In this document: positions 1,495 to 27,143 of the stretch, piece after piece
Position numbering within the stretch: the stretch's first letter is position 1
Layout: each line of letters begins with the position of its first letter
Assembly: GCA_004563595.2 (NCBI GenBank)
Contig: CP042461.1
Span: 1,140,001-1,172,000 of the forward strand
Reading direction: 5' to 3'
Length of the DNA: 32,000 nt
Origin: Candidatus Saccharimonadota bacterium
Lineage (GTDB): Bacteria > Patescibacteriota > Gracilibacteria > BD1-5 > UBA6164
Program-made: the position numbers and the translations under genes
The notes under the pieces: model-generated
Seen by the model: only the letters and a program-made list of their open reading frames with translations
Databases searched by the model: none
Told to the model about the DNA's origin: nothing

Positions 1495-2391
1495 TTATAT
1501 ATTTATTAAATCACTCTGCCCATATGCAGAAATATACTCGTCAAATATTCCATAACAATCATCTTTAAAATCACACTTTCCACATTCTGGTAAATATGAT
1601 CTTCTTCCATAATCAGTATTATAGAGCTTATTCTCATATACCTCAGTTATATAATTTATCTTTTCAGTCTTCAGGTCAGCCCTTTTTTCTAAATCTCATA
1701 AAAATAAACATAGAGGGAATCAATCCCAGTATATTTTAATACCTTTTCCGTCAAACATTTCTATTGCTGATTTTATATTAAGAGAGGCTTCTTTCGGTGA
1801 ACAGAATAATGCATCATTATTTCAAGCACCAGAGGGTTCTAAAAGAGAAAACTTAATACTTAAGTTTTCATACGAAGTCTTTAAAAGACCATTCAAAGTG
1901 TCCTCTATGGAAGATAAATTATCAGAAATAACCACATAATTTAAAAATAATGAATCAAAACTTCTTTTTTTCAAAGAACCTATGATCTTTATGACTCATT
2001 CATAACTTCCTTTACATCATACTATGTCATCATGTATCGTTCAATATCCATGAATTGATAAATATATATTTTTAATTCCTAAATCAAATAACTTATCTAA
2101 AAACCTATCACTAGAAATAGTAGACCCATTTGTAACAATTCAAAAATCAAGTCATTGTTTCTTGATAAAATCTATGACACTAAAAAAATGTGATTCTAAT
2201 GTAGACTCTCCTCAACTAAGTAAAATGATTTTCACTCACTTCTTTTTTAAAAGTAAAATTTTAAAAAAGAGAGCCTTGATATTTATTTCTTTTATATTTT
2301 TTTTATATTCAGCATGACAAAAAGAACATGTATAGTTACATTTGTATCATATCTTTAATAATGCTTTTTCTGTGATTAATCAATCAGACAT
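1495..2391 (-). CDS. Radical SAM maturase, HxsC-like (298 aa)
   Basis: ATG 2391, TAA 1495-1497, 897 nt in frame under TGA=Gly. MSDGLITEKALLKIGYKCNYTCSFCHAE (CX3CX2C), LLSGGESTL, IVTNGS, and C-terminal ECGKCDFKDDCYG (CX2CX5C, SPASM/twitch-like). It lies just downstream of the HXS-repeat precursor. Confidence 0.7.
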
Positions 2392-3272
2392 AATTTACTT
2401 GTTAATTCAGTTTTTGCTAAGTCCCCAATCAAATACCTGATATAAAATGCATCTACATCATATTTTCTCTCATTTGTTTTAAATTTTTCCAATATTTTTT
2501 CCTTATTTCAAGCTGCTAGATCTGATTTAAAGGTATTACATTTTTTCTTTTTCTCTATTTTTTCAGTCTCTTCACAAAATATTGCGTCAGATAGTCATTG
2601 TAAATTTAAAGTGGGAGCTTGATGTAACCATAAAATGTCTCAAAATATAGCTTTTTTTATAACAAAATCTATATTCATTCATTGCTCCAAGAAATTTATG
2701 ATTTTTTTCTCACTGTTATAAAATTTCATATAATCCATTTCATCTACCTTTACATTCAGAAATGGTGATTTTGTATAGCTTGAGTATAATAAAGAAGAAG
2801 TATCACTTAAGTATGATCAGATATTATCAAGAGAGTCTAAAAACTTCTTACATTCTTGTTTTGAGGCATATCATTCTTCATTTAAATTATAAATAGAGTA
2901 AATAATTGCAGATACATCATCAAAGTTATTCGTATTTAATTTTTCAAGATCATTCACCAATATTTTTTCAACCTTTTCTACATCTTTTCAATAGAAGTTA
3001 TTGCTTTCAAATCATTTTTCTTTAATAAACCTTGTTATATCCTTTAGATATAAGAAAAGGGGGGCTTCTGCATTTTTATATTTTTTACTTGTTTCTAACA
3101 GATATTTTATAAGTACTTCCTTCTTGAAAGTATAATCTGCTACGGTAATTTTATTGAATTTTTGAATAGAATCATAATTCGTATCATTTTGATCAAAACG
3201 GTCTTCTTCATCAATTTCTTTTACCAAAATTTCATCAGCTGTACTTTCAATTAAGACTTTATCATTATTCAT
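2376..3272 (-). CDS. Hypothetical protein of the Hxs cluster (298 aa)
   Basis: Extends track ORF 3012..3272 through about 10 in-frame TGA to TAA 2376-2378 (897 nt). It overlaps the start of the next rSAM gene by 16 nt (ATGTCTGATTGATTAA). I recognised no family. Confidence 0.5.
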
Positions 3273-3370
3273 CAGTCATCCATTGTGTCATAAAAATACT
3301 CATGATACAATTCAAACGATAAATATTATACATACAATTACATATTTCATTTTTTCAAAGTTAATTTTTA

Positions 3371-3742
3371 TTACCAACTACAATGTGAGCCATGAGAACC
3401 GTGCGACCCATGAGAACCGTGTGATCCATGAGAACCATGACCAGAAATAGCATTACCAGAAGTTGCATTAGAAGTAATATTATTACTATAATGGCCATTT
3501 ACAATACCACTTGCATGATTTACAGACTGATTTATGTCACATTGAAAGTTATTATATGAGGGATATCCTCATTGTCATGCCCAACTTGCATGAGCTGCTG
3601 CCACCTCATCTACTCCACTCAACAACATTGCCCCTGCTGCCAAACCTAAAGCATCTTTTTTCGTAATTTTTCCACTCTCATCAGTAAGAAACCCCTTCAA
3701 TTTCTTTTTTATTTTTGGAAATAGCTTCTTTTTTCAAGACAT
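3371..3742 (-). CDS. hxsA: His-Xaa-Ser repeat precursor protein (HxsA-like, 123 aa)
   Basis: ATG 3742, TAA 3371-3373. MSGKKKLFPKIKKKLKGFLTDESGKITKKDALGLAAGAMLLSGVDEVAAAHASWAGQGGYPSYNNFQCDINQSVNHASGIVNGHYSNNITSNATSGNAISGHGSHGSHGSHGSHGSHGSHCSW. It has a basic N-terminus, a hydrophobic segment and ten H-x-S triplets. It is flanked by radical SAM genes. Confidence 0.8.
3383..3442 (-). repeat. Tandem 9-bp (18-bp super-unit) coding repeat specifying (Gly-Ser-His)n
   Basis: Plus strand reads atgtgagcc atgagaacc gtgcgaccc atgagaacc gtgtgatcc atgagaacc atgacc. The reverse complement encodes GHGSHGSHGSHGSHGSHGSH. Confidence 0.85.
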
Positions 3743-3765
3743 ATTTTAGTATTTATATGTTAAAA

Positions 3766-5214
3766 TTAGTTCTGTATCCAAGAGAGAAGTATCTCTTTTG
3801 CCTCTTTATCTCTTAATTTTTCAAAGATATAATCTAATATTGCAATTTGTATCTTTACTTTTTCATCCTGTACTAATGGAGTATAGAGATTTCACGTCGT
3901 AGTAAAGTTATGAATGATATCAACTCCAAGATATGGTTTATATACATGGTCATTGTATCCAGGTAATCAATCTAGGCAACTCGATTGAATTGCTACCTTT
4001 GTAACTTCTGAATTCATCATATCATTATATGTTTGTTTTGCATTATCTCAGACCTCTGTCATAAGAAAGTCATCTATTCACATTCTTCCAAGCATTCTTG
4101 ATTCATCTGATGCATAGATTTTCCCATCATAATTGTAAGCAACTCCTCATACAGCTATCCCTGAGGGGCTTCTAATATCCATAAAAGCAGGGTCCTTTGC
4201 ATTAAATATCTTCATAAGATACACTGATGTGATAGATTCCGTAAAGAACGTTCCTTTCTTATTTAATTCTATTATATAATCGAGTGATTTTTTATAAAAA
4301 TCTATCCATTCTTCAGATTCATATGCAAGAGTTTTCATATCTGATGCTGCAAATCCATATGGATTCAGCCATCTCAGGAAAATTCCATCAAGACCTAATT
4401 CTAGATATGTATCAATAATTTCTTTATATTTAGGAAGAGTTTCTTTTGTAACAGTGAGTAAAGCACCTATTTTTCACATATTACGTTTTTGTTTCTCCTC
4501 AGATACTCTTTTCATCCAATAGCTTACTTTTTCAAAACTATCTCAATTATATCCTGCCCTATTTGAGTTATGAATCACTTTATTCCCATCTAAACTCGTA
4601 CAGATATCAACTCAATGATCTAACAACCGAGTAAGCTTCTCTTCTGTCATAAGTGTTAGATTTGATACTAATGAGAAATTAAGTCATTTTTTAAGATGAC
4701 CTGCTTTTATAGTAGCATAATCTACTATATGTTGTACCACTTCATAGTTCACTAAAGACTCTCCTCCCTGAAACTCTATAGTTAAACTTGGTGAATTTGT
4801 ATAAAAAATAGTATCAACCACACGAGTTGCTGTTTCTATATCCATATCATATTCTTTTGCTGTCATCGGAGCAACGGCTGCATGACAATATTTACATTTA
4901 TGATTACATCTGAGTGTAGTAATAATCATATGAAGTGTTGGTCAAACACCTACAAAATGATTTTTTAAAGCAATGCTTCCTGCCATTTTGTCTTGATAAT
5001 CCTGATCTTTGATAAATCCATTTTTACTTAACGCTTCATACTTTAAAGTATTTTCTATATCTCATGTGATAAAAGTATGAAATTCTTTCGGAGTTAAAAA
5101 CTCGTATTTTCAGGCATCGTTGGTAATTAAATATGAATTTTCATCAAATTTTTTAAATCTAAAATATCATATTTTATCAGTATGTGCATTCTTAATATCT
5201 TGTAAATTTAACAT
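3766..5214 (-). CDS. hxsB: His-Xaa-Ser system radical SAM maturase (HxsB-like, 482 aa)
   Basis: ATG 5214, TAA 3766-3768 (1449 nt). It joins track ORFs 4684..4929 and 4147..4338 in one frame. TLRCNHKCKYCHA (CX3CX2C), EFQGGESL, SLVSNLT, and a long C-terminal auxiliary domain. It ends 23 nt upstream of hxsA. Confidence 0.8.
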
Positions 5215-5217
5215 TAT

Positions 5218-5412
5218 TTATCCATTAATCAGTCAAATATTATAATTCATAAATTCATTGAAAATTTCCTCTATTTCATTCTCTGTTGATCAAGTTATTG
5301 TAAGGGTATTATTTTCTAATTTAATTTTTGAAACCTCTTTAAAATCTTCTATAGATTCTAAAATTTTTGAAGCATCATATATCTCGAAGTCGAGATTGAA
5401 ATCTTTTTTCAT
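5218..5412 (-). CDS. Small acidic protein (64 aa), possibly a truncated HxsD-like paralog
   Basis: ATG 5412, TAA 5218-5220, 3 nt before the hxsB ATG. MKKDFNLDFEIYDASKILESIEDFKEVSKIKLENNTLTITGSTENEIEEIFNEFMNYNIGLING. Confidence 0.45.
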
Positions 5413-5423
5413 ATATTTATAAA

Positions 5424-5993
5424 CTATTTTTTAAAATTATCTTTGGCTTTTTTAATAGCATCTGGATTTATTGTAATCATTGGTTTTGTTTTTTCTGATC
5501 ATGTTTCTTCTTCGATTTCTTTCAGTATTTTTTCAATCTCAGCATCGTCAATCTTCAAGTCTGGATCATTTTCTATCTCTTTCAAAATTTCATCTATATC
5601 TTTATCAAAACCTATTTGATTTTGTTCTAGATTTTTTTCAGCTTCATCTGTATTAAATGATACAAAGTTTAATGTATCAAGTGGTCAATTAATAGCTTTT
5701 TTTACAATTGTCTCTCTTATCTCTTTGTTATCTTTTTCTAACTTGTCTCTTAAATATACAGATAATAACTCATCAGAAAAACTTCAAACAAGGGTTTCAG
5801 AATTAATTTTAGTAGAATCTTTTGCTGTAAATTGTAAAATTATATTATTTTCCCTATCATGTTTAAAGAAAAAGTATCATTTATCTAAAAACATATAAGC
5901 CGCTTTTAAAATGATATCTTTTGAATAAATTTTTGTATCAATTAGAAGTTCTAATTGATCATTTTTTATCTCTTTTTTTAAAAATTGTTCCAT
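5424..5993 (-). CDS. hxsD: HxsD-like protein (189 aa)
   Basis: ATG 5993, TAG 5424-5426 (570 nt). MEQFLKKEIKNDQLELLIDTKIYSKDIILKAAYMFLDKGYFFF...SFSDELLSVYLRDKLEKDNKEIRE resembles the LLNDYxLRE signature of HxsD as I recall it. It is the first gene of the cluster. Confidence 0.5.
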
Positions 5994-6083: not shown

Positions 6084-6515
6084 CTATTTTATAGTACTTC
6101 CTAACTTTAATTGTGCAATAGATCTGAGTAACATATCTTCTGCCTCAATGAATTTTTCCATATCCATCTTATCCTTTGAATCTCTATATTTTTCCATGAG
6201 TTTTAGTGCTTCTTCTCTTGCTCTTTCAGCCTTAGAAACATCTAAGTCATCAATATCAACAAGCATATCAGCCATGATTTTCACACTATTGTTACTTATT
6301 TCAACAACTCATGTTCAAATAGCAAAATCATCCCTTCTCTCAATATCTTTATCATCTATATATACAACATACATAGTAGATGGTTTGATACTTGTCAAAA
6401 GTGGTGCATGATTATCAAGTGCTGTTATCTCTCAAATACCTGTCATCATAGTAGCTGAGACAACATTCTCTGAAGAAAATGCCTCTCATCAGAATGATAA
6501 TATTTTTAATTTCAT
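6084..6515 (-). CDS. atpC: F-type ATP synthase subunit epsilon (143 aa)
   Basis: MKLKILSFGGEAFSSENVVSATMMTGIGEITALDNHAPLLTSIKP... continues into track ORF 6084..6284. TAG stop at 6084-6086. It is the last gene of the atp operon. Confidence 0.85.
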
Positions 6516-6551
6516 ACTTTATTATTATTTAATTTTAATACTATCTATAAG

Positions 6552-6647
6552 CTAACTCCCTCTGTCCTTCGGACATCTCCCTCCATGAGGGAGAAAAAAT
6601 CAGTTCCCCCTCATGGAGGGGGATGCCTGAAAGGCAGGGGGAGTTTA
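6552..6647. repeat. GC-rich nested palindromic element between atpD and atpC
   Basis: Outer stem aactccctctg (6554-6564) pairs with cagggggagtt (6635-6645). Inner hairpins: gtcc-ttcg-ggac, ctccctc-cat-gagggag, tccccctc-atg-gaggggga, gcc-tgaaa-ggc. The left arm is approximately the reverse complement of the right arm. Confidence 0.7.
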
Positions 6648-6659
6648 TCTTAATTATTC

Positions 6660-8060
<1,401 letters not shown>

Positions 8061-8091
8061 TTGTATAATAATTATTATAAATTAAATTTTT

Positions 8092-8496
8092 TTAGTTTAT
8101 TTCATCCATTGCTACATTACTCAATCTATCAGCTTCTTTATTATCCTCTCTTTTTACCCAGTTATATTGAACAGTTATCTTTGCTTCTGATACAAGTTTA
8201 ATAATATCTGCGTGTATTGTTCTTAATTCATCTTTCTTTATTTTCCATTCTCACTTCAGCTGACAAATAACGAGTTTTGAATCCATATAGAGTTCTATGT
8301 GCTGAGATCAAAGTTCAATAGCTCTTTTCACTCAATAGTAAGCTCATAAGTACTCTGCTTCATTATTAGTCTTAATTCATAAACTTTTATACCTTTGCTC
8401 AACTGTTCATCAATTTTCATCCATAATGTGAACTCAGAGTCATGAATTTCATGGATTTCATCGAGACCCTCAATCTGTATAGACTATTAATTTCAT
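8092..8496 (-). CDS. rnhA: Ribonuclease HI-like protein (134 aa)
   Basis: MKLIVYTDGGSRGNPGNSGLGVHIMDENGGTVEQRYKSLGIKTNNEAEYLGAYYGVKRAIELG...NKEADRLSNVAMDEIN contains the DGG..GNPG / NNEAEY / EADRL(A) RNase H motifs. There are more than 10 TGA-Gly codons, so it is invisible in the standard-code track. Confidence 0.8.
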
Positions 8497-8501
8497 AAAA
8501 A

Positions 8502-8879
8502 TTACTTTATTTCTTTATCTATATAAATTTTCATTTCATCATCTTGAGCTTCATCTTTTTTCTCAATCTCAACTTTTTTTATTTTTTTTTCTTCTTTCTT
8601 ATTTATTACAGTTTTGTCTTTGGGAATATTTTTACTTGTATCTGTTTTACAGCTAAAATAAAAATATTTTCTTAACAACACTGTAATAAGCGCTATCAGA
8701 ATAATAACTAAAACTGCAAGTTTCATATGTACAGGATCTGAACTTCATGGAACAGCCTTTCATAATGAATTAAGTACTAATCCATATAAAAAATTTCATA
8801 GTATGATTCAAATTAATGAATATATTCCAAAAAATAATATATTTAAGAGCCCTTTTATAGCGATTGGTATATTTTTCAT
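8502..8879 (-). CDS. Small membrane protein (125 aa; alternative start 8726)
   Basis: Track ORF 8502..8726 extends upstream through TGA codons to ATG 8879. MKNIPIAIKGLLNILFFGIYSLIGIILGNFLYGLVLNSLGKAVPGSSDPVHMKLAVLVIILIALITVLLRKYF..., followed by a Lys/Glu-rich tail. Two or three predicted TM helices. Confidence 0.5.
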
Positions 8880-8945
8880 AATAATTATATTAAAAATAAA
8901 TCTACCTTATTTTAGCCTTTTTCTAACAATTGTAAAGAAGAAATC

Positions 8946-9854
8946 CTATACGTCTTTCATAGACTCTACTCATGCAGTTATCTCAGAAACTTCTCTGGTA
9001 ATAATTGCTTGCCTTGCTTTATTATATTGCAAAGTTAACTTATCTGCTATCTTTTTTGCACTATCTTTAGCATTTTTCATCGCAATCATACGAGATGAGT
9101 GCTCCGAAGCTTTTGCCTCTAATAATATATCAAAGAAAATCAAATCAAGTATCATCGGAATCATTTCATTTGCAAGCTTCTCAGGAGTAGGTTCCAAATC
9201 ATAACTATATATATTTAATTCTCCTAATTCCTTTTCTATATCATACTCATCTCATAAAATACTTGTAAGATAAGCTTTTATATCTTTTGCATCAATTGGA
9301 AGAGAAAGTTTTGCAACAGGAACTTGTTTAATGGTGTTAATATAGTGATTATAAAAAACAACTACTTTATTATACTTACCTGATTGAAACTCCTCTCTTA
9401 AGAGTTGAGATATTTCTTTTGTAAAAATAGGATCAATATTATCTGAAAAATCTACAGAAAAATCAGCAATCAGTTTATTCCCAGTTCTCGCAACAAAATT
9501 TGATGCTTTTTTTCAAACTGAAATAAATTCTAACTCTTCTCCTGTTTCTTTGATGTATGAACTTACTTTTTTCATAACATTTATATTATAACCTCAACAT
9601 AATCATTTATTTGAAGTAATAACAACAGCAAGAGTTTTATCTCATTTTCCTTCTTTAAAGAGTGGAAAATCACCAAGATGCTCCTCTACTCTTAAAAATA
9701 TTTTCAACATTTCAAATACAAAATCTCTCTTTTGCAAAGCAAGTTCTCAAGCTTTTTTCATCTTTACTGTTGAAATAAGCTCCATTGCTTTTGTGATTTT
9801 TCCTGTATTCTTTATCGAACCTATTTTACGTTTTATTTCTTTAGCATTAGCCAT
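8946..9854 (-). CDS. atpG: F-type ATP synthase subunit gamma (302 aa)
   Basis: [45 protein letters not shown]... The C-terminus ...[16 protein letters not shown] reads through the apparent TGA stop at 8970 to TAG 8946-8948. Confidence 0.9.
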
Positions 9855-9878
9855 AAAAGTTTTTTAATTATTAGGTTT

Positions 9879-11384
9879 TTATTTATTAATTTCAACTATT
9901 TTAGCAATAACTTCTTTTAATTTAGTTTCAGTATCAGATGTAATTTTCTTTTCTTTATCTATTGAAGCTAAAACTGTTTTTTCATCTTCAAGTGCAGAAT
10001 AGAGTTCTTTTTCAAATTTTGCTACTTTTTCAACTTTTATACTATCAAGGTATCCTTTTGAACCAGCATAGATAGAACATACTTGTTTTGCAACAGTGAT
10101 TGGTGAATATACACCTTGTTTTAATAGTTCCATCATTCTTGCACCTCTATCAAGTTGAGCTCTTGTCGCTGCATCAAGATCAGAAGCAAATTGAGAGAAA
10201 GCTTCTAATTCTCTATACTGAGCAAGGTCTAGTTTCAAAGTACCTGAGACTTTTTTCATTGCTTTGATTTGAGCCGCACCTCAAACTCTCGAAACTGATA
10301 ATCATACATTAATTGCTGGTTTTTGACCTGCATTAAATAAATCAGATTCTAAGAAAATTTGACCATCTGTAATTGAAATTACATTGGTAGGGATATAAGC
10401 AGAAACGTCACCAGCTTGAGTTTCAATAATAGGTAAAGCCGTCATGGATCCGGCACCTAATTCTTCATTTAATTTTGAAGATCTTTCAAGTAATCTTGAG
10501 TGAGTATAAAATACATCTCAAGGATATGCCTCTCTTCCTGGTGGTCTTCTTAATAACAATGACATTTCTCTATATGCATTTGCTTGTTTTGTAAGATCAT
10601 CATATACAATAAGTGAATGTTCTCCATTAAACATGAAATATTCAGCCATAGCACAACCAGCATATGGAGATAAAAATTGCATAGAAGCTGGATCAGAAGC
10701 ACCTGCAGTAACTACGATAGTATAATCCATAGCCCCTCTTTTCTTTAATTCGTTTACAATTCTTGCAACTTTTCATTCTTTTTGACCAATAGCAACATAT
10801 ACACAGATTACTCCTTGACCTTTTTGATTTAAGATTGCATCAATAGCAACTTGAGTCTTCCCAGTTTGTCTATCTCAGATAATAAGCTCTCTTTGTCCTC
10901 TCCCAATTGGCACTAAAGAATCAATTGCTTTAATACCTGTTTCCATTGGTTGATGAACTGATTTTCTATCCATTACTCATGTAGCAACTCTTTCAACAGG
11001 ATAGTATTCTGTTGCTTTGATATCTCCTAAACCATCTAATGGTCTTCAAAGAGCATCAACAACTCTCCCAATAAGACCTTTCCCTACTGGAACTTCTAGG
11101 ATTTTCCCAGTTGTTTTTGCTTTTTCTCCTTCAGAGATTTTATTAAAACCATTTAGAATAACTATTCATACAAAATGTTCTTCTAAGTTAAGAGCTATTC
11201 AAGTTGCACCTGAATCAAAACTTACTACTTCGTTGTAAGCAACTTTTCCAAGTCCTGATACTTTTGCAACCCCGTCACCAAGATAAAACACTTCTCCTAT
11301 GTTTTCTACTTCTGGGTTCAGGTCAACTGAATCGATTTTAGATTCGATATCACTTATGATATTATTTAATAAGTCGTTTGACAT
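9879..11384 (-). CDS. atpA: F-type ATP synthase subunit alpha (501 aa)
   Basis: Joins track ORFs 9879..10259, 10518..10730 and 11199..11384 in one frame. Walker A is GDRQTGKT, with its first Gly encoded by TGA. Confidence 0.95.
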
Positions 11385-11420
11385 AAAAATATTTGTTAAG
11401 GTATTAAATTACATTTTTTA

Positions 11421-11783
11421 TTATTTGAGCATTAATTTTTCTATTTTTGAAAAACTTATATCTATCATAGAATCATCCATATACACTTTTATTCCACCAG
11501 AAAGTTTTTCATTTGGAAGGAATAAAATTTCTTCTTGTTTTGGTGATATATGAAAACTCTTATCATAAACTTTTACAGCTTGAGTATAGACTTCTTTTTC
11601 ATTTAATTTCGGAAAATATTCAACTACCAGTAGTTTTTCTCATTTTAATCCTCTATTAAATAGATCTTTTCCTCTATTTCAAAGCTTCTTACTTAAATCT
11701 CTATAAAGTTTTACTTCTTGTAATAATTTTTGTAATTCTTCAAGATTTAAATCTTGTATATTATTTTGAATTGATGTATCCAT
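11421..11783 (-). CDS. atpH: F-type ATP synthase subunit delta, unusually short (120 aa)
   Basis: Sits between atpF and atpA. The C-terminal ...EKLSGGIKVYMDDSMIDISFSKIEKLMLK matches the delta/OSCP C-terminal motif (GG-I-x-V-x-x-G-D-x-x-I-D-x-S). 363 nt from ATG to TAA. Confidence 0.7.
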
Positions 11784-11805
11784 AAATTCTCTCTTCAATT
11801 ACGAA

Positions 11806-12273
11806 CTATAAACTTTTAATTTCTTTTTCTATAAATTCTTTATTTATCTTTTCTTCATCAAATAATTTCTTATTTATCTTTAAAGATAAGTCTACTACTT
11901 TTGCTTTCAAAGCATTTGCCATAGAAAGTCTTTCTTTTTCTATATCACCCAGAGCATTATCAATAATACTTTTTGCTTCCATATCTGCGGTTGCTAATAT
12001 TTTTTCTCTTCATTTTTTTGCTAAAGCATCTGAATCAATTTCAATATTTGAAGCTTTTTCTCTTGCTTCAGTCATAATTAAATCTGCTTTTGATACAGCA
12101 TCATCAAGTAATTCTTTTGCTTTTAATTCAGCATCATCAAATTTTTGTAAATTCTCTCTACGACCTTCAATCGCTTTTATGATTTTTTCTCATAAAAAAT
12201 GTTTAAATAGAAAGAATAATATTCAGAAATTGATGAGTTGAGCTATAACAATTCCTAATTTTAAATCGTCCAT
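11806..12273 (-). CDS. atpF: F-type ATP synthase subunit b (155 aa)
   Basis: MDDLKLGIVIAQLINFGILFFLFKHFLGEKIIKAIEGRRENLQK... has one N-terminal TM helix followed by a long charged helix. Operon position supports the call. Confidence 0.85.
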
Positions 12274-12325: not shown

Positions 12326-13216
12326 CTATCCTAAAACTTTAAATGCAATAATCAGACCATATATTGCAACTACTTCAATTAATGCAACAAATAGTACCAT
12401 AAATGCCATAATTTTTCATTTTGACTCAGGTGATCTATTAATCGAATCCATAGCACCTTTTACAAGTAATCATTCTCAGATACCTGCCCCAAGACCTGTA
12501 AGACCAATTGCAAGCCCAGCTCCAATTGATGCAAAAGCTGATAAACCTTCAATAGAAAGAATTTGAAATGCTACTATAAGTGCATAGATAGCAGCTGACT
12601 CTACAAGCGCAACTCAAAGTATAGAAACAGTTAAGAAAAAGCTAATCATTCTTGGATTTTGACCCATAACTTTTAATGCTTTTTCTGATAAATATCATCT
12701 TCAAATTGCAACCCCTACACCGGCAAGACCGATAGCAAGACCAGCTCATACATGAACAATATTTTCTGTACCTTCACCTATAATTTTAAATGCGATAATC
12801 AAACCATATATTGCAGTAACCTCTACAAGAGCAACAAACAATACCATAAAGGTCATAATTTTTCATTTAATTGAAGGGTTTCTATTCATAGCTGAAAGCG
12901 CTCATGCTATCAACATACCTTCTCACCAACCGGCACCTAGACCAGTTAAACCAATTGCAAGACCAGCAGCAATAGAAGAGAATAAACCAATTCCTTCAGC
13001 TCCAAGAAGTTGAAATGCAACTACGAGTCCATATATAACAGCTGATTCTACAAGTGCTATACCAAGAATAGTAACTGTAAGGTAAAATGTAGCATCTGAA
13101 GGAGTTTTTCAAATAACTTCCATAGATCTTTTTGCTAATATTCATTGACCGATAGCTACTCAGATTCATGCCAAACCAACAGCAAGACCAGGTCCTATAT
13201 AATTTACGAAATCCAT
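12326..13216 (-). CDS. atpE: F-type ATP synthase subunit c, four c-hairpins fused in one 296-aa polypeptide
   Basis: ATG 13216 to TAG 12326-12328, 891 nt with no TAA/TAG and 14 in-frame TGA. There are four consecutive units of GxGxGxG helix, polar loop, and a helix with Glu: ...IALVESAVIYGL..., ...VALVEVTAIYGL..., ...VALVESAAIYAL..., ...VALIEVVAIYGL... Sits between atpB and atpF. Confidence 0.85.
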
Positions 13217-13265: not shown

Positions 13266-14075
13266 TTAATGCACCTTCGCTACTTTAATAAAGATAGCGA
13301 TCAACAATGGGAATACCAATGCTTGTATAAATGCAACTAACATTTCTTGTAAGTAGAGTATGATTGGTCCAAGGACTGGAAAATCGAAACCTATAAGACT
13401 TACAGAAGCGCTTGATAAAGCTCATATTAACATCGCAAGAAGTATCCCTCATGATGTAACATTTCAGAATAACCTAAATGAAAGTGAGATTATCTTAGCA
13501 GCATGACCAACTATTTCTAATAAACCTAAGAATATTGAAATGATAATATCAAAAGCTTTTACCAAAGCATATACAGGTAAATCAATATACTTGTTCAATT
13601 TTCACTTTTCATATGGGATATAATCTTTTCAGAAAATTGGGACATATTCATATAATGTTTTCCAAAATCCTAAGAACATGAACTGTTCATATATAACTAT
13701 GACTACTCAAACAACTGCCATGGCTACATTAAAGTTTATATCTGCTGTAGGTATCTTTATATAATGTTCCATTCCATGACCAAATACAGGAAGAAGAAAT
13801 TCTAAAAATAACCCTAGTAAGTTTGAAAGTAATATAATGAAGAATAAACTTGTTATATAAACCTTTGTCCACCTTTTTTCTTCTTTTCCTAAGATATCTT
13901 CAAAGAATTCAAACACTTTTTCGAAAAACATTTCAAAAAAGACAACAAAACTGGCTTTTCTATAGTTTTTATACAAAAAAGCAAGAACTCAAAAAAGCAG
14001 AAGTTCCACTCACAACCCTACTATTACTCAAGGATGTAAGAATACTGATAAAAATTCCGGTAATATATTTTCCAT
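13266..14075 (-). CDS. atpB: F-type ATP synthase subunit a (269 aa)
   Basis: MENILPEFLSVFLHPGVIVGLGVELLLFGVLAFLYKNYRK... extends track ORF 13707..13976. The C-terminus ...LVFPLLIAIFIKVAKVH is typical of subunit a. First gene of the operon. Confidence 0.85.
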
Positions 14076-14243
14076 ATGTTTTTTTATATATATCTGATTA
14101 AAACGCTAGGAGTATATAAAAAAGAGAAAAAAAAGCAAGAATTTTTTTTGAAAATGCTGAAGTTTCATTATAGTCTATATATTGATAGATTCTCCAAAAA
14201 AAATAAATACTTTGTCTCTACATTTTAAACCCCCTATATTAAC

Positions 14244-15815
14244 ATGATAAATAAATACAAAAACACCTCTGCCTTTTCACTTGCAGAACTTATTCTTGTA
14301 ACTATTATTCTCGTAATTCTTTGAACTATAGCATTTATTTCATTAAGAGAATATACAAAAAATGCAAGAGACTCAGTAAGAGAAACAGATATAAAAAATA
14401 TATCAACTCAGCTTAACCTCTTTAAATCAATGAACTGATTTTATCCTGAACCTTCAAGTGGGTATGATATCACATACGCATGAACCAATGTATGGAGCCA
14501 ATGAACCATAGGGGATAGTGTCATATTCAACCTACAATCGCTGAATAAAAAATCGGTAGACCCATTTACAAACTCAGAGTATACATATTCAAGGCTCACA
14601 TCAAGAGATAGTTTTCAAATTGCTTCTGTATTAGAGTCATGATCAAATCAAGGATCTCAAATAGAGTGAAAGAAAACAGCTACAGCGTATATAACATGAG
14701 ATTACAAATGTATTATGACAAAAGTAAACTCAGGAGGTACTACATATATATTAGCCGTACCCAGTCTCATTAGCTGAAGTTCTGAGTGATCTGACATCGC
14801 ATCAGCATTTAACAATTTAATTATAGACGGATGAGAAAAACTCCCTAACAGCTATGCAGATTCCATATTTGACATACAAGCAGATGGAAGCTCATCATTT
14901 GTACAAACAAGTGATTATGTTGTATTTAGCTGAAGTATATATGATTTCCAAAATGAAGATCAACAAATTTTTCTTATAAATCAACTTCAAAAGGCATATA
15001 GCTGAACCAGTATAGAAAATAATTTTCAAATTAATGCTCTTTCTGATTACGATACAATACTCAACACTGAGGGAACAAAGTTTTTAGCACAAACTATGAT
15101 CAAAAAATGTCTCAATTCAGACATAAAAGTAACAGCAAAAAATACAACAAAATCTCCTTTGTTCTGATCTTCAATATTAAGTTATTACAGTTTTGATAAG
15201 AATTACACTGATGCTTGAATATTATGAAACAATGGTATCGTTAATAACGATGCAAGTATTGATTCCAGCAATCAAAACTCATATAGAAAATCATATGTTA
15301 CATTTTGAGGGGCAGCATGATATATCGAACTCCCTCACAATTCAGCATATGAACTTTCAGATTGAACCATTTCCTTGTGGGCTCAAGTAAATAAGCCTGA
15401 TGCTTGGTCATGATTATTCTCAAAAGATGAATTCCAAACTAATACCCCGTGACATATAACTATAGGAATTGATTATAGTAAATTTTATTATAGACTCCAA
15501 GAAATAGGAGATGAAAAAATACTTAGACCAGTAAACCCCGTAGTTTGAACAGACTGGAAGCATATGGTAGCAAGCTTTTGATGAGATGGTATGAAATTCT
15601 TCATTAATGGAAGTATAATCCAGTCAAACTGATATACATGATGAACCATCGGAAATACAAACCCCATAGCATTATGAGCAAGTATTCAAGCGAGCCAAAC
15701 GGGCCAACTATTACCCCTTGACGGATATTTTGATGGAAGCATTGATGAACTTATCATATATGATAAACAACTCAGTGACGATGAAGTATTAGAGCTCTAC
15801 AACAGCCAAAAATAA
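14244..15815 (+). CDS. Type IV pilin-like protein with C-terminal LamG (concanavalin A-like lectin) domain (523 aa)
   Basis: MINKYKNTSAFSLAELILVTIILVILGTIAFISLREYTKNARDSVRETDIKNI... is a prepilin-type N-terminal methylation/TM motif with Glu at +5. The C-terminus GILGNNGIVNNDA...VTFGGAAGYIELPH...DGTISLWAQV...DGYFDGSIDELIIYDKQLSDDEVLELYNSQK is LamG-like. 1572 nt open under TGA=Gly. Confidence 0.75.
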
Positions 15816-15853
15816 AAAAAAGACTTCGTAATTTCTTACGAAGTCTTTTTTTT
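15813..15853. terminator. Bidirectional intrinsic terminator between the convergent pilin-like gene and the second c-subunit gene
   Basis: Stem agacttcgta (15821-15830) pairs with tacgaagtct (15837-15846). It is flanked by an A-run and a T-run. Confidence 0.75.
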
Positions 15854-15868
15854 ATTTTTCTATATCTT

Positions 15869-16759
15869 TTAAGATAAAATTTTGAATGCAACTATCAGTC
15901 CATAAATTGCAAGAACTTCTACAAGTGCAACAAACAGAATCATAAATGCCAAAGCAGAGTTTTTATTTGCAGGATTTCTATACATAGAGTTAATTGCTCC
16001 ACCGACAAGACAACCTTCTCATACTCATGCTCATAGAGCTGCTAATCAAATTGAAAATCATGCTCAAAGTGCTGCGGCTCCTATAATAGCTGACGTTCAA
16101 AGAATTTGAAAACCGATTACTAGCCCATATATTGCAGCCGATTCCACTAAAGCAATTCAAAGAATAGTAATAGTCAGAAAAAATGACGTTAATTCAGGAG
16201 CTCTTCACATAACAACAAGAGCCCTTTGAGCAAGTATTCCCTCCCCTATTCATACTCATAATCATGCAAGCCCAATAGCAAGACCAGCTCCAACAGCAAC
16301 ATATTCATTTATATTTTCAATACTTAAGATCTGGAATGACATAATAAGCCCATAAATGGCTGCTGATTCAACAAGGGCAAGAAAGAGAATCATAAATGTA
16401 GTAATTTTACTTTTATTATCTGGATTTAAATTTATTGCCTCAAGTGCTCATGATACCAGTATTCACTCTCATATTCATACTCCTAATCACGCTAATCATA
16501 TCCCAAGTCATACTCCTACAGCCGTCATTCATTGTAAACCTTCGGTTCACAAAATTTGAAAGGCAATAATAAGCCCATAAATGGCTACTGATTCAACTAA
16601 CGCAACTCACAGAATTGTTACCGTTAAATAAAAAGTACTCATCTTTGGGTTCTTTCCCATGATCTCCATTGCCCTAAAGGTCAATATTCCTTGCCCTATT
16701 GCAGCACCAATACATGCCAATCAAACAGCTAAACCTGCTCATAAATATGTTAAATCCAT
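15869..16759 (-). CDS. atpE: Second four-hairpin fused ATP synthase subunit c paralog (296 aa), stand-alone
   Basis: ATG 16759 to TAA 15869-15871, 891 nt with 24 in-frame TGA. MDLTYLGAGLAVGLACIGAAIGQGIL...VALVESVAIYGL...GIGEGIL...LALVESAAIYGL...GIGEGIL...IALVESAAIYGL...GVGEGCL...VALVEVLAIYGLIVAFKILS. Same length and architecture as the operon copy. Confidence 0.8.
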
Positions 16760-16824
16760 TTGTTTTTATAAAGTTAAAATCTATTCTATACTATTATTAA
16801 AACATAATTATTCCTATAAAACAA

Positions 16825-16865
16825 AAAAACTCCTGAAATACTATTGTACTTCAGGAGTTTTTTAT
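16825..16865. terminator. Intrinsic terminator after the beta-propeller gene
   Basis: Stem ctcctgaa (16830-16837) pairs with ttcaggag (16850-16857), with an A7 run before and a T-run after. Confidence 0.65.
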
Positions 16866-16878
16866 TATTTATATATTT

Positions 16879-19140
16879 TTATTTTAATTTTACACTTTCA
16901 ATTTTTTCTCAAGTTCCTAGATTTGAAGATTTGATTTGAGTATCAGATATTGAATAAACTTTATCTCCTATCCAAATTGCTCTTTTTACAAAGTCTTTGC
17001 TATAATTCCAAGATTTTGAAGCTAAATATTCACCAATTGGACTTTCAGCATAACAATACTTTGGAACATATCTATTTTTTACTGGACAGTAGAGACTTCC
17101 ATCAAGAAGCTTTGTACATTCTGACTCTTCATCTTTTACTGTATATTTACTGCATTCTTTGATTCTCTCAGATTCTATATCTCCTGTTTCAATATGTGTA
17201 ATTTTATAGTTTTCTTTAATTCAAGCATCTTTATCAATATCAATTGAAACGAGACCTTGAAAGAAATCTATTGCTCTATATTGATCATCTTTATGATTCT
17301 TTTTTAAAGTCATTGGAAGTAATAGAGTATTATCCTCTGCCTTCCACATGAACATTCTCGGATTACTAAGAGCTTCTGAGTAACTTCCATATTCTCATAA
17401 TACAAGTGAATGTTTTTGAGCTACATATATATCTCAAGTATTATCTTTTGAAGTTGGTTTTTTATCATAATCTATTTCATAAAGATCTATTTTGATACCA
17501 TTATTTTGTACTCCTCCCCATTTATTTTCTTTTGTGTCATAACCAATACCAATTAAGTGATTTTCATCATATGGATGAAGGTATGTAGAATATCATGGCA
17601 TTTTTAGTTCTCCAATAATTTTTGGATTTTTAGCGTCCGCAAGATCAATTACAAACAATGGATCTATTTGCTCAAAAGTAACCAAGAATAATTTATCTCC
17701 TATATATCTACTTGATTTAAAGTCTTCTCACCCTCAAAGACCTTGTAGACTTGATTTTAATTCTAAGTTTTCATCAAGTATATATAAGTCTGTATGGGCT
17801 TCCTCTCACTTAGAGTTCCATCTATTTGTTTTTGTAAGAATTCTGAAATCATCTTTATATTCATCCATTGAATATTGAGTAAGTGGGCTTCCTTCTACCA
17901 ATGCACTTGTTTGATAACTGAGTTTCTCTCCGTTTATATTCATTTTATGAATAAGTGTATGATTTGTTCATCCGTAATAATACGGAGCGATACATCTCAT
18001 ATTTGGAGCACATCTGAATGGTTCAGTTTTATATACACTATTCGTAAGATATAAATTATCTAAACTCATGTATATTTCGTTGAGATTTCAAAAAATTACT
18101 GTTGTATATGCAGGATCTTCAATATCATTGATATCGATGACTGAGATAAGATTAAATTGAGGGTACCCTAAATCTGTATCTGAATCAGGAAGAATGTATT
18201 CTATTTCATTACATTTTGCAACATAGCCAGTATTCACATTATAATCTCTCTTTTTTCAATTTGTTTCTACATTTTTTTCTTCATCATTATTCGTTGCAAA
18301 AATTTCTAAACCTTTTGGAATAATATCATTTGCAGAAAGAGGTTTTTCTTCTGTGTATCATCTAAATAAATTATAACTGTCCTTTCTTGAAATAACATAT
18401 AATTTATTATCTATGAGTCTTGATTTTGTGAAATTTCATTCCGTCATAAAAGCTTTTATCATCTTTGCTTCTTCTGGTTTTGAAACATCATATATAATAG
18501 TATATGTCTTTGAACTATTATCCCAATATTTCTTTTGAAAAGTACCTGTTGGTCTTCCACTTGCAAGGATAATAAGTTTATCATCTTCTAAATACAATTG
18601 AGTTCCCCAAAAATGCTTTGGGAGTTTAATCTTTTTTACCACTTTCATCGTACTTGCATCAATAACAAATACATTCTTTTTTTGTCTATTATTATAATCT
18701 TTTATAGCATTATCATAATAGTCAGACATATAATATATATAATCTCCATCAGTTTTGATTATTTCAGACTCTGAAACCCCTTGTACTTGTTCATTTGTTT
18801 CTGAAAAATCAGATTTACCTGATGTTGCAGGAAGAGATTTTGTTTCAACTGCCTCTGCTGCAGAATCTTCCATCATAACATCATCTACTGCATTAAAAAT
18901 TACACCTCCTCATTTTCTATAATAATTCCCATATTTTGAATTATAATTTTTCAAAAAATCATTGGTAACTTTTTCTAAATCTTCACAAGAATTAAACGTC
19001 TTGAACTGGAGACTTTCTGTTGCAATTTCAGTTGTATTTTCTTTATTAAGTTCTTCAATAATTGAATCATCTTCAATTTCAGCGAAAACACTGGTAAATG
19101 AAAATATTGCCAAAATTGGTAACAATAATACTTTTTTCAT
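16879..19140 (-). CDS. Secreted beta-propeller domain protein (~753 aa; alternative ATG at 19173)
   Basis: Signal peptide MKKVLLLPILAIFSFTSVFA. SETNEQVQGVSESEIIKTDGDYIYY matches the TN-VQ-x-GV-DE-x-DIVKTDG-x-YIY signature of the Beta_propel family. C-terminus RAIWIGDKVYSISDTQIKSSNL... Track ORFs 18436..18876 and 18910..19173 are in the same frame. TAA at 16879-16881. Confidence 0.75.
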
Positions 19141-19214
19141 AAGATATATATTAGTAATTAAAACGGGTAACATGTACTAAAACGATTTTCCTCCCAGATG
19201 GTGACAAAATAATT

Positions 19215-20153
19215 CTATTTTATTTCTTGAAATTCACAAGTTCAGTTTTCATAATCACCTGAATGACATTCTTTTTTATCTTTTCTACAGATTTTTTCTT
19301 CATCATTTTCTATAATTTCTCATCATTCAGTTTCACAAAAGTCTTCAAATAATACAAGTCACTCATCAAAATCTTCAGACAGATCTCATTCTCAACCAAG
19401 ATCACCAAATAATCATGAGAAATCATTTCAAATCATATCTGACTCTGAAGCTTGAGATCATCTACTTATTCACTGATCTTTAGACTCTCAACCTCAAAAA
19501 AGATCTATAAGTTGAGTATTCTCAAGTTCACCTTGCTGAATAACAGGAGTGTTATCTGTTACCTCCTTTTCTACATTGTCTGAAGAAGATACTCCTATTT
19601 TTTCTACAGCAATTTCGTCATTATTCTTTTCAGTTTCTCATATATCAGATTCTATCCTCACCTGATTCTTTAATTGAGCCTTAGCTCATCATTCAGATAT
19701 TATATTTTGCTGTATTTTTTTTTCTACACCTACTCTATTCACTTCTTCTTCCTGAATATTTTTTTCTTCTATTATTTTATCTATTATTTCTTGAATATCT
19801 CTCTGAACACTTTCTTCAGAAACCTTATTATTTACGTTTTGAATTATAGGAGTTTCATTTTCTTGCTGAAACAAAGTTCCTGGTAAAAAATAGAAAAATC
19901 AAAAAACAGCAAAACTTGTTGCAAAGATAGGAATAAAAATATGATAATATCTTTTTTTTATATATGTATTTTTTTTATGCTGAATTATATTTGTTAACCT
20001 TTTCTTTAAATCTTTCTTAAATTTTTGTGGTGCTTTTATTTGAGGGTTTATACTTTTTAACACTTTTATAGCCTCTGATAAATGTTTCTTTTTATCTTTT
20101 AATTCAGGGTTTTCCCCTATAAGTTCATCAACAATTTTGTTATTATTTTTCAT
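19215..20153 (-). CDS. Single-pass membrane protein, anti-sigma-factor-like (312 aa)
   Basis: Track ORFs 19899..20153 and 19689..19874 are one frame joined across TGA. TM segment YHIFIPIFATSFAVFGFFYFLPG. The C-terminal part is very acidic, Gly(TGA)-rich and has four Cys. Its ATG lies 3 nt after the sigma gene stop. Confidence 0.6.
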
Positions 20154-20156
20154 AGC

Positions 20157-20708
20157 TTACAATAATATTATAAATATGAGTACCAGTACAAAGTTTGCGC
20201 TTATTGTTTTCAGCCCTCTAGAAACTATTTTTTTACAGTTATCAACTGATTTTCATGTAATTTCTGAAATTTCATTGTAGTTTAAGTCATTCCATATTCT
20301 GAGTACAATCACTTCTTTATGTTCATCTTTTAATGTCTGCAGGAAGTCAAAAACCTCTTGTACCTTTTCTTTGTCATCAATTTGAGTTCAGATATCTTCA
20401 TTCTTTCATACATCCATGTATTCTTCCATTGATACATCAACTTTATTTGTTTTATAATGGTCTTTTACTTTATTTCATGCAATAGTATAGATCCATGCTT
20501 TGAAACTACTTCCTTCTTTTACATCAAACTTTTCTATGGAATTCAAAGCCTTATAAAAAACATCGCTTGTAATATCTTCAGCAACCTCCTTATTTGATGT
20601 TTTTAGGTATATAAACTTATAAATACTATCTATGTATTTATCATACAGTTTTCAAAAGTATTTCATATCTATATCCTGACAGTTTTTTACAAGTTTCAAG
20701 TCGTCCAT
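20157..20708 (-). CDS. ECF-type RNA polymerase sigma-70 family factor (183 aa)
   Basis: MDDLKLVKNCQDIDMKYFGKLYDKYIDSIYKFIY...AEDITSDVFYKAL...FKAWIYTIAGNKVKDHY (region 2), then ...EVIVLRIWNDLNYNEISEITGKSVDNCKKIVSRGL (region 4 helix-turn-helix). Confidence 0.8.
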
Positions 20709-25892: not shown

Positions 25893-25907
25893 AGTATATA
25901 GCTAAGA

Positions 25908-25942
25908 TAAAAAGCTTCGTGAATATTCACGAAGCTTTTTTA
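25908..25942. terminator. Intrinsic terminator after dnaK
   Basis: Stem aagcttcgtg (25912-25921) pairs with cacgaagctt (25928-25937), loop aatatt, followed by T5. An A-run upstream makes it potentially bidirectional. Confidence 0.8.
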
Positions 25943-25967
25943 ATACATTACCTTTTACCCCCCCTTT

Positions 25968-26459
25968 TCATAATTTTTTCCAGTCTTTATCCCCTGTGCA
26001 ATAATGGATATCCTGCTTCATGTACCAATGCGAGCTCTCAATAAGAAAAGAAATTACATGGTTTTTAGCTTCTAATGTTAAATCACCCTTATAAGGCTTA
26101 CAAACAAAACTTACTAAATTAAGGTTCTTAATATTATGACCAAATGTACAATCAGTAGCATTATATGCATCAACAGAAGGAACTAAGCTATCGATTATGG
26201 TAACCCTTGGGATATTTTGAAAACCTTCAATCTTTTTATACAAACTCTCAGACTTTTCTTCTAAAGAAAATATAATACATGGAATACTACCTATCAAGTA
26301 GCCTTCTATTGAGTTAATATTATTTTCTTTATTTATAAATATAACTCGGATATCTGGCTCTCCTTGAAAGTCTTTTTGATACTCATTATTTGTACTACAT
26401 CTCAATGCAAGATATATGTCTTGCGATAAACCTCCATCAATAAAGTCTATTTTTATCAT
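25968..26459 (-). CDS. Hypothetical protein (163 aa in the standard code; 185 aa if the terminal TGA is read as Gly, ending at TAG 25902)
   Basis: Intact ORF with no internal TGA despite 9 Gly codons. AGAGGA Shine-Dalgarno 8 nt upstream of the ATG. A TTGACT-N16-TATTAT promoter lies at 26518-26491. Confidence 0.55.
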   Translation of the reverse strand: MIKIDFIDGGLSQDIYLALRCSTNNEYQKDFQGEPDIRVIFINKENNINSIEGYLIGSIPCIIFSLEEKSESLYKKIEGFQNIPRVTIIDSLVPSVDAYNATDCTFGHNIKNLNLVSFVCKPYKGDLTLEAKNHVISFLIESSHWYMKQDIHYCTGDKDWKKL

Positions 26460-26771: not shown

Positions 26772-27143
26772 TTAATCTAACTTATCGTTTTGTATTTTTT
26801 CCTCCTCACATTTTGAACACTTCTGAGGAGCTCCCTTGATTATATCCATCATTGTATTTACAAGAACCTGTTTATTAATAATTCTCTTCATGTACCACGG
26901 GTTCTTTTTGGCAAAAGTATCTATATTTTTTACTATTTGCTCTTTATGCAACTTCAAAGATTCTTCATCTCTCTCAGTTGGACAATAATTCAACGAATGA
27001 TGACACTGTACAAGTACTCCCCATTCGATGAGACCTTGTATACCTACACTATATGGTAAAAGTTTTGGATTATGAGCTTCTCGCATAATACACCTCCTAT
27101 TTTTTGCTGGATAATACTCGAGAACTCTCATAATACCAAACAA
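26772..27143 (-). CDS. Hypothetical Cys/His-rich protein (123 aa from TTG 27143, or 119 aa from ATG 27131), TGA-free
   Basis: Intact in the standard-code track. ...CHHSLNYCPTERDE...CSKCEEE suggests metal binding. TAA stop followed by the terminator. Confidence 0.5.
   Translation of the reverse strand: MFGIMRVLEYYPAKNRRCIMREAHNPKLLPYSVGIQGLIEWGVLVQCHHSLNYCPTERDEESLKLHKEQIVKNIDTFAKKNPWYMKRIINKQVLVNTMMDIIKGAPQKCSKCEEEKIQNDKLD

Follow-up and report, generated by a model that had tools for sequence, protein, structure and literature searches.

The window analysed here is a 32,000-nucleotide (nt) stretch of contig CP042461.1 (assembly GCA_004563595.2, positions 1,140,001 to 1,172,000), which carries an F-type ATP synthase operon with a four-hairpin c subunit (c) and, upstream of it, a second four-hairpin c gene that we refer to as c'. 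The window is AT-rich (about 30% GC) and throughout its length TGA is a sense codon, read as Gly under genetic code 25. Under translation table 11 the c' gene contains 24 stops, and under table 25 it is a single open reading frame (ORF) of 296 amino acids (aa). The TGA codons are located in the GxGxGxG motifs of helix 1, and 21 of the 24 align with Gly residues of the operon paralog. The c' protein is identical in sequence to the 'ATP synthase F0 subunit C' of Candidatus Gracilibacteria bacterium 28_42_T64; the paper describing that closed genome treats the F-ATP synthase in general terms only (PMC6851277). Genes and signals at the locus are listed in Table 1.

Table 1. Features of the c' locus and the atp operon. 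Positions are those of the window; motif shorthand such as Q.ES gives the helix-1 residue, followed by the helix-2 Glu and the residue next to it.
Feature	Position	Strand	Remarks
c' gene, F-type ATP synthase c subunit, four fused hairpins	15869..16759	(-)	296 aa, code 25
c' Glu codons	16592-16594, 16367-16369, 16142-16144, 15917-15919	(-)	
c' hairpin 1 (aa 1-72)	16544..16759	(-)	type A; helix-1 GQG, helix-2 ES..Y
c' hairpin 2 (aa 76-147)	16319..16534	(-)	type B; helix-1 GEG, helix-2 ES..Y
c' hairpin 3 (aa 151-222)	16094..16309	(-)	type A; helix-1 GEG, helix-2 ES..Y
c' hairpin 4 (aa 226-296)	15872..16084	(-)	type B; helix-1 GEG, helix-2 EV..Y
Operon paralog c, four hairpins	12326..13216	(-)	296 aa; motifs Q.ES / E.EV / R.ES / E.EV
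atpB (Fo a subunit)	13266..14075	(-)	only a subunit within the window
Rest of F-type operon: b, short delta, alpha, gamma, conserved transmembrane ORF, RNase H-like ORF, beta, epsilon	6084..12273	(-)	
Terminator-like hairpin and T-run	16824..16863	(-)	ends beta-propeller gene; insulates c' from upstream transcription
Bidirectional terminator-like hairpin	15812..15855	(.)	common to c' (-) and convergent pilin/LamG gene (+)
Extended -10-like motif TATGTTTTAAT	16796..16806	(-)	45 nt upstream of c' ATG; same position in relatives
Conserved motif TATACTCCTAGCGTT, consensus TATACTNNTNGCGTT	14102..14116	(-)	upstream of atpB
Pilin (T2SS-G-like N-terminus) and LamG/ConA-like gene	14244..15815	(+)	T2SS-G pilin and Laminin_G_3 matches; between c' and atpB
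PF09826 beta-propeller gene	16879..19173	(-)	conserved upstream neighbour of c' or atpB across Gracilibacteria

A four-hairpin c subunit upstream of atpB

The c' product belongs to the F-type c subunits, and its four hairpins are intact. The sole Pfam family that it matches is ATP-synt_C (PF00137), found four times along the chain (E 2e-56; 188 bits against a cut-off of 24), and it passes the NCBIfam models for F-type c subunits (TIGR01260, 101.7 against a cut-off of 43.95; NF009999, 140.4 against 124). It scores below the cut-offs of the NCBIfam V-type K models, and at 103 bits it misses the cut-off of the N-ATPase c model TIGR03322 (130.85); the gene order is canonical F-type. AlphaFold2 folds the chain into eight helices, or four hairpins, with a pLDDT of 93.7. 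Helix 2 of every hairpin carries a Glu (E56, E131, E206 and E281), helix 1 is Gly-rich (GxGxGxG), and the cytoplasmic loops contain Pro (KNP, LNP, RAP and RNP), with P38 and P263 invariant or nearly so in alignments. The hairpins are mutually 49-61% identical. In a structure search, the best sequence match (E 2.6e-14) and the best fold match were both the F-type c1 subunit of A. woodii (PDB 4BEM); no solved structure spans more than half of c', the best being the two-hairpin A. woodii c1 and V-type proteolipids. The code-25 ORF, the fourfold Pfam match, the predicted fold and the four Glu residues together bear out the chain of 296 aa, four hairpins and four Glu that had been read from the sequence in the original prediction. 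The operon paralog has, again as predicted, equal length and architecture, is 61% identical to c' and uses 14 TGA codons to the 24 of c'. We rejected an assembly artefact, since the same architecture recurs across many independent assemblies, and a pseudogene, since the ORFs are intact. A search of the window against Rfam returned nothing at the gathering threshold.

The comparative results below come from 83 loci annotated by code-25 ORF calling, a hairpin hidden Markov model and phmmer; they were drawn from contigs encoding related proteins and from a scan of GTDB species representatives. In the window, 1794 nt separate the c' stop (15869) from the atpB start (14075), and the distance of 1.8 kb and the intervening opposite-strand pilin/LamG gene are both as originally described. 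The description of c' as unlinked to the operon does not hold beyond this genome and a small number of others: most of the 15 other loci with two c genes have c' immediately upstream of atpB and on its strand. The BD1-5-type order runs ProRS, SPOUT methyltransferase, ECF-like sigma, putative anti-sigma, PF09826 beta-propeller, c', atpB, and continues with c, b, delta, alpha, gamma, a small transmembrane protein, beta, epsilon, HxsD and radical SAM. By comparison of these loci, the ancestral order is beta-propeller, c', atpB, c, b, delta, alpha, gamma, beta, epsilon, into which the pilin/LamG gene was inserted specifically in the lineage of the window. Genes of this kind (GspG-like, ~528 aa) number about 15 in the 28_42_T64 genome (PMC6851277). 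Two other lineages have insertions at the same junction of c' and atpB, a 131-aa ORF in one (L001) and HxlR-like and PEBP-like genes in the other (L011). Among species representatives whose contigs cover the junction of beta-propeller and atpB, about 11-13 have c' and 12 are without it. As a separate observation, a gene for an ECF-like sigma factor (20157-20708, minus strand) and one for a probable membrane anti-sigma factor (19215-20153, minus strand) lie just upstream of the beta-propeller gene; this sigma, anti-sigma and PF09826 set (16879-20708, minus strand) is conserved immediately upstream of c' or atpB Gracilibacteria-wide.

Separate transcription of c' and the operon is predicted

Both terminator-like hairpins that flank c' are stronger than 20 of 20 shuffles in 240-nt windows, which supports the terminators predicted on either side of the gene. 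In the 16 two-c loci, similar hairpins precede c' without exception and separate it from atpB in about 13; none were found in three loci with a lone seven-hairpin c gene upstream of atpB, where the gaps measure -1 to 25 nt. The promoter that had been predicted for c' finds support in this insulation and in a conserved extended -10-like motif: TGnTnnAAT lies 38-45 nt upstream of the c' ATG in 12 of the 16 loci, and the remaining loci have close variants there. TGnTnnAAT has a background rate of about one per kb per strand, and the extended -10-like motif taken alone occurs in the window about as often as chance would have it (1 match against 1.3 expected). Our case for a c' promoter is built on conservation at a fixed position. 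Scanning the window with the sigma-70 consensus gave 45 promoter-like sites against 48 in shuffles, which is no excess.

A different element precedes atpB. The consensus TATACTNNTNGCGTT is strongly conserved in 17 related loci; each has a single occurrence, placed about 27-45 nt before the atpB start, and relatives without c' have no exact match to it. Its instance in the window, TATACTCCTAGCGTT, is probably the operon's own promoter (-10) and/or a leader element. Because c' has terminators on both sides and a conserved motif of its own, and atpB is preceded by a different motif, c' and the atp operon are best described as two putative transcription units with different promoter regions. Consistent with this, the three independent insertions between c' and atpB fit a transcriptional break at the junction.

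Codon usage also distinguishes the two genes. Of the Gly codons in the window, 43% are TGA; c' lies above this average with 51%, and c (30%) and alpha and beta (20-22%) lie below it. The DnaK share falls, like those of alpha, beta and operon c, within a band of about 20-30%. In its use of TGA c' resembles ordinary genes, in contrast to c and the other operon genes, which avoid this codon. In the six loci L006-L009, L011 and L016 the contrast is larger: c' has 59-70% TGA, c just 1-7% and alpha and beta 0-5%, and the neighbouring beta-propeller gene has about 50%. To the extent that codon choice can be read in this way, the contrast indicates a lower or conditional expression regime for c'. If TGA avoidance tracks expression, as the values of alpha, beta and DnaK suggest, c' would not be expressed as a stoichiometric core subunit. 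Elsewhere in the window, two ORFs (25902-26459 and 26772-27131) are nearly without TGA (1 of 13 and 0 of 4 Gly codons) and might be foreign or differently expressed DNA.

A gene with its own promoter in this position could also serve outside catalytic rotation, as an assembly scaffold or chaperone, as a c-ring pore or in some other complex unrelated to F1. c' occupies the usual atpI position upstream of atpB, no atpI homolog was seen, and c' appears to be transcribed on its own. It has, however, only this genomic position in common with AtpI, to which it shows no similarity, and it keeps the full c-subunit chemistry, including the x-N/A-P of the cytoplasmic loop that contacts gamma and epsilon in F-type enzymes. 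Furthermore, the only neighbours conserved beside it in the 83-locus annotation are the atp genes and the secreted beta-propeller, so that no other partner genes suggest themselves. We consider a role of this kind highly improbable.

c' belongs to a constrained and old lineage

In a neighbour-joining tree built from terminal modules, the c' core excludes all main c genes in 90 of 100 bootstraps and the c clade excludes c' in 100 of 100. We rejected a recent duplication on the strength of these separate clades and of the identity of just 49-61% among hairpins within the gene, in agreement with the original prediction; c' is thus an old paralog lineage. The c' of the window is 57-63% identical to other c' genes, and its c is 67-86% identical to other c genes.

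By the NG86 method, dN/dS in relatives is 0.055-0.155 for c' and 0.05-0.23 for c, and c' is under purifying selection in these genomes. c' evolves 1.6-4 times faster than c; in the pair L008/L009, for example, dN is 0.10 for c' against 0.023 for c. The faster rate, together with the absence of c' from about half of the junction-covered species representatives and a codon usage that is not optimised, could describe a redundant spare, a duplicate with no distinct role that is drifting towards loss. The low dN/dS speaks against this, as do the retention of the Glu, Ser/Tyr and Gly motifs and the loop Pro in all hairpins, the conserved promoter motif and the age of the lineage. No pseudogenes were seen in relatives. 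We therefore judge redundancy to be very unlikely. The signs that the original prediction had named as telling against its own reading of c' (absence or pseudogenisation in all relatives, loss of Glu, relaxed selection) were not found, c' being intact in many relatives.

Chain length varies while the carboxylates are kept

The number of fused hairpins varies widely within the family. c' has 4, 6, 12 or 13; c has 2, 4 or 6 when it occurs alongside c', and 2, 4, 6, 8, 10 or 12 when it occurs alone, as in Vampirococcus lugosii (L042), whose c has 10. The pairs found in two-c loci (c'/c) are 4/4, 6/4, 6/6, 12/6, 13/6 and 12/2. The c' orthologs of 12-13 hairpins are those of L006-L009, L011 and L016, and three oral-type genomes have one seven-hairpin gene upstream of atpB and no c gene after it. 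Hairpins of types A and B alternate, so that the building block of the family is a two-hairpin module. Throughout this variation the helix-2 Glu is kept, in 516 of 516 hairpins examined, and every c' hairpin retains the Glu, Ser/Tyr and Gly motifs and the loop Pro, the 968-aa versions included. A universal ring of 12 hairpins was considered as a rule and rejected, given the single-c relatives with 8 and 10.

Several side observations concern chain length. Single chains of 10, 12 or 13 c hairpins are encoded in L006-L009, L011, L016, L025, L033, L037, L039, L040, L042 and L043, and such bacterial F-type chains are candidates for a whole rotor ring in one polypeptide. Five loci labelled Peribacteria or Gracilibacteria (L052, L053, L056, L068 and L077) have tandem Fo modules, with a, a two-hairpin c and b followed by a, c, b, delta, alpha and so on; the second c has one hairpin in four of them and two in L052. 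Among the Asgard archaea, the K/c proteins P0127 and P0131 (Promethearchaeota, Hodarchaeota) have 630 and about 1140 aa and 8 and 15 hairpins, all with Glu kept.

Two classes of ion site

In the I. tartaricus site, subunit A provides Gln32 and Glu65, and subunit B provides Ser66, the Val63 carbonyl and Tyr70; in E. hirae, whose K subunit is fused, the part of B is taken by the preceding hairpin (PMC2359735). We examined the corresponding positions in 57 distinct multi-hairpin genes, whose counts are not phylogenetically independent. Glu32 in a given hairpin occurs only after Ser/Thr66 in the preceding one (274/274), and Val/Ala66 in the preceding hairpin is followed by Gln, Arg or Lys at position 32 (46/46), a rule without exception. 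Since this covariation of positions 32 and 66 matches the known site geometry, we assigned the sites across neighbouring hairpins. The first hairpin has Gln and the last has Val in 47 of the 57 genes.

The c' protein has Gln, Glu, Glu and Glu at position 32 of its successive hairpins, Glu65 and Tyr70 in all four, Ser66 in hairpins 1-3 and Val66 in hairpin 4; it thus carries the Na+ motif (Gln/Glu32, Glu65, Ser/Thr66, Tyr70) save for Val66 in hairpin 4. This composition predicts three {Glu32, Glu65 / Ser66} sites and one {Gln32, Glu65 / Val66} site at the chain junction, compared with two {Glu, Glu / Ser} sites, one {Gln, Glu / Val} and one {Arg, Glu / Val} predicted for c. The Thr67 position is not polar in c', where the motif ES[VA]AIY or EVLAIY places Val, Ala or Leu there, and it is hydrophobic in both paralogs; under a published rule this predicts H+ rather than Na+ (PMC2359735). 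H+ has likewise been argued for the Vampirococcus ATP synthase in the paper on that organism. Three genomes with a single c (L013, L040 and L043) have a c'-like site composition, so that site chemistry of this kind would seem to suffice alone.

With regard to the operon paralog, R172 places an Arg at the helix-1 Gln/Glu position beside the ion-binding Glu, and it is conserved in the c lineage, where Arg32 is always preceded by a hairpin with Val66. This Arg could neutralise its site, in which case fewer ions would be carried in each turn.

Discussion

From these data, it is very probable that c' functions as a rotor subunit of the F1Fo enzyme and that it is transcribed apart from the operon. 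Three uses had been proposed for it originally: a heteromeric ring, condition-dependent swapping of the rotor, and a c-ring outside the ATP synthase. The last is unsupported, swapping fits the comparative data best, and the heteromeric ring stays in contention as a rival. We tentatively favour a model in which c' forms an alternative ring that replaces the operon-c ring under some condition. In such a model, the c' chain of four covalently fused hairpins, each with an ion-carrying Glu, would be transcribed alone, from its own promoter and with a terminator on each side, and the operon (atpB-c-b-delta-alpha-gamma-x-beta-epsilon) would start at the other conserved motif. c' would be absent from some enzymes and would build a ring of its own, for example of three copies and 12 hairpins, that takes the place of the operon-c ring when conditions call for it. 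As the c' and c rings differ in site chemistry, the exchange would alter either the affinity for the ion or how many sites work in each turn, leaving the remaining enzyme unchanged.

The alternative is a heteromeric rotor, in which c' and c would share one c-ring, for instance as 4+4 = 8 or 4+4+4 = 12 hairpins. There are precedents in A. woodii, where c1 is combined with c2/c3, and in the V-ATPase proteolipids c, c' and c''; additionally, the best PDB match of our c' comes from a heteromeric F-type ring, chain J of 4BEM being c1 in one copy next to nine c2 chains. The genes for c' and c flank atpB in one cluster, their common chain-end pattern would allow mixed rings with unchanged junction sites, and a four-hairpin and a one-hairpin c are paired inside one operon elsewhere (L083). 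Several lines of evidence nonetheless lead us to prefer swapping over mixing. Firstly, the c' orthologs of 12-13 hairpins are already ring-sized, to judge from the 13 hairpins of M. kandleri K (PMC2359735) and the active engineered single-chain c10 (PMC8809890), and yet coexist with a c of six or two hairpins; added to a six-hairpin c they would give 18-19 hairpins. Combined at 1:1, the two subunits would total anywhere from 8 to 19 hairpins in genomes as closely related as these (79-87% identity to the alpha and beta subunits of the window), and the 6/4 genomes cannot mix to 12. Secondly, c' is set apart transcriptionally by its putative promoter and its terminators, and in many relatives its codon usage is unlike that of all other atp genes. 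Finally, about half of the junction-covered species representatives do without c', and the multi-hairpin partner in known hybrid rings has lost carboxylates, which c' has not. The single-c genomes whose site composition resembles that of c' (L013, L040 and L043) also speak for swapping. On balance a heteromeric rotor seems to us somewhat unlikely.

A number of observations weigh against swapping or weaken the case for it. The chain ends of c' and c are alike, with Gln in the first hairpin and Val in the last, and look compatible with co-assembly. Ring size is evidently not tied to 12, given the single-c relatives with 8 or 10 hairpins, and this makes the arithmetic argument soft. TGA share is just a proxy for expression, and it is about equal in c' and c in 6 of the 16 two-c loci. 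For the c' of the window, which shares at most 63% identity with any relative and so lacks a close one, the selection regime is deduced from orthologs. The three genomes with a lone upstream c gene join c' in just 32% of bootstraps; their seven-hairpin genes, whose evidence is positional only, were accordingly dropped as proof that c' can be the sole rotor.

In its boldest form the swapping model would provide two interchangeable rotor rings for one F1Fo, the c' ring being a single chain of 12-13 hairpins in some species. We regard this form as rather unlikely. If it were true, a change of ring would also change the numbers of {Glu, Glu / Ser} and {Gln/Arg, Glu / Val} sites, and with them the ion affinity of the enzyme or its effective ion/ATP ratio. 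This would amount to a naturally occurring 'gear change' in an organism without a respiratory chain, whose enzyme must either draw on a borrowed gradient or run backwards.

Taken singly, multi-hairpin rotor subunits, hybrid rings and c paralogs all have precedents. The hybrid ring of A. woodii (c1 with c2/c3; PDB 4BEM) likewise stems from an F-type operon with more than one c gene, one of them hairpin-fused. Its c1 has two hairpins, the second with Gln in place of the carboxylate, whereas c' has four with Glu in all; its partners are single hairpins encoded contiguously after atpB, whereas here the partner too has four hairpins and c' lies upstream of atpB between terminators. The A-type K subunits of M. 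kandleri (13 hairpins, 1021 aa) and M. jannaschii (three hairpins) are fused with every site kept (PMC2359735), and c' orthologs reach a similar 12-13. The archaeal A-type enzymes have a single K gene, in contrast to the two paralogs of a bacterial F-type operon described here, and the c' of the window differs from the single-chain ring of the M. kandleri type in that its four hairpins require several chains per ring. An engineered single-chain c10 ring of Bacillus PS3 (Mitome 2004) is cited as an active rotor (in PMC8809890); that ring is artificial and made of identical repeats, whereas the Gracilibacteria fusions are natural and their diverged hairpins are of two alternating types.

Two c paralogs that differ in structure, serve one F-type enzyme and have separate promoters are known from Podospora anserina (Atp9-5 and Atp9-7), where expression differs in level and stage and the properties of the enzyme differ as well (PMC4956034). 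They are a precedent for differentially expressed c paralogs; the Podospora paralogs are eukaryotic and single-hairpin, and differential expression of c' and c is deduced from terminators, promoters and codon usage alone. As for site chemistry, the c subunit of Fusobacterium nucleatum has Glu32, Glu65, Ser66 and Tyr70, and c' likewise has Glu32, Glu65 and Tyr70 in hairpins 2-4 and Ser66 in hairpins 1-3. Unlike in this two-carboxylate c, the Thr67 position is hydrophobic in both c' and c. Other bacterial F-type c paralogs of 3-5 hairpins (e.g. P0135, L083) resemble the present case in placing a four-hairpin c beside a second c; P0135, however, has one of its four Glu left and a single-hairpin partner, and such paralogs are 27-33% identical to c'. 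Glu-poor c proteins of 3-5 hairpins form dozens of 50%-identity clusters. One example lies in an unrelated bacterium with the standard code (L083, 6948-9933; L084), in the order a, four-hairpin c (320 aa, one Glu), PanD, single-hairpin c, b.

What is new here is an F-type family of 2-13 fused hairpins with the carboxylate kept in all, and two old paralog lineages on either side of atpB; to these may be added the predicted independent transcription of c' and the putative two classes of covarying ion site. Full-text searches of the openly searchable literature yielded no account of any of these elements, nor of multi-hairpin or paralogous c subunits from Gracilibacteria, BD1-5, Patescibacteria or Absconditabacteria, and neither the genome paper (PMC6851277) nor the Vampirococcus paper mentions them.

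In every rotary ATP synthase the ion/ATP ratio is set by how many c hairpins and working carboxylates a ring contains. It has long been asked what determines ring stoichiometry and whether cells are able to alter it. In this lineage hairpin number is hard-wired by gene fusion (2, 4, 6, 8, 10, 12, 13), often in two diverged versions around one a subunit. The fusion series therefore offers a natural test of ring-size determination, since only certain chain lengths close rings, and of site cooperation and rotor swapping. A whole ring in one chain had previously been deduced only for the archaeon M. kandleri. The strict 32/66 covariation between neighbouring hairpins is, in addition, an independent evolutionary read-out of ion-site geometry. 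More generally, the c' system bears on a puzzle of the candidate phyla radiation, namely the role of the ATP synthase in cells without an electron transport chain (PMC6851277, PMC8080830).

Other features of the atp operon

Three further genes within the operon deserve mention. The gap between atpG and atpD holds a gene for a predicted membrane protein of 125 aa (8502-8879, minus strand), which is kept in this place in 36 loci and could be an undescribed Fo-associated subunit, and one for an RNase H-like protein (8092-8496, minus strand), found in 12 loci. The product of the gene in the position of delta (OSCP; 11421-11783, minus strand) is just 120 aa long and has no match among Pfam or NCBIfam models; the gene is nonetheless kept at that position in relatives.

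Directly 3' of atpC lies a His-Xaa-Ser system (1495-5993, minus strand). It comprises HxsD (5424-5993), the radical-SAM protein HxsB (3766-5214; 479 bits against a cut-off of 370), an HxsA-like peptide with six terminal Gly-Ser-His (GSH) repeats (3371-3742) and an HxsC-like radical-SAM gene whose score is under the cut-off (1495-2391). HxsD and a radical-SAM gene trail the atp operon in many related loci.

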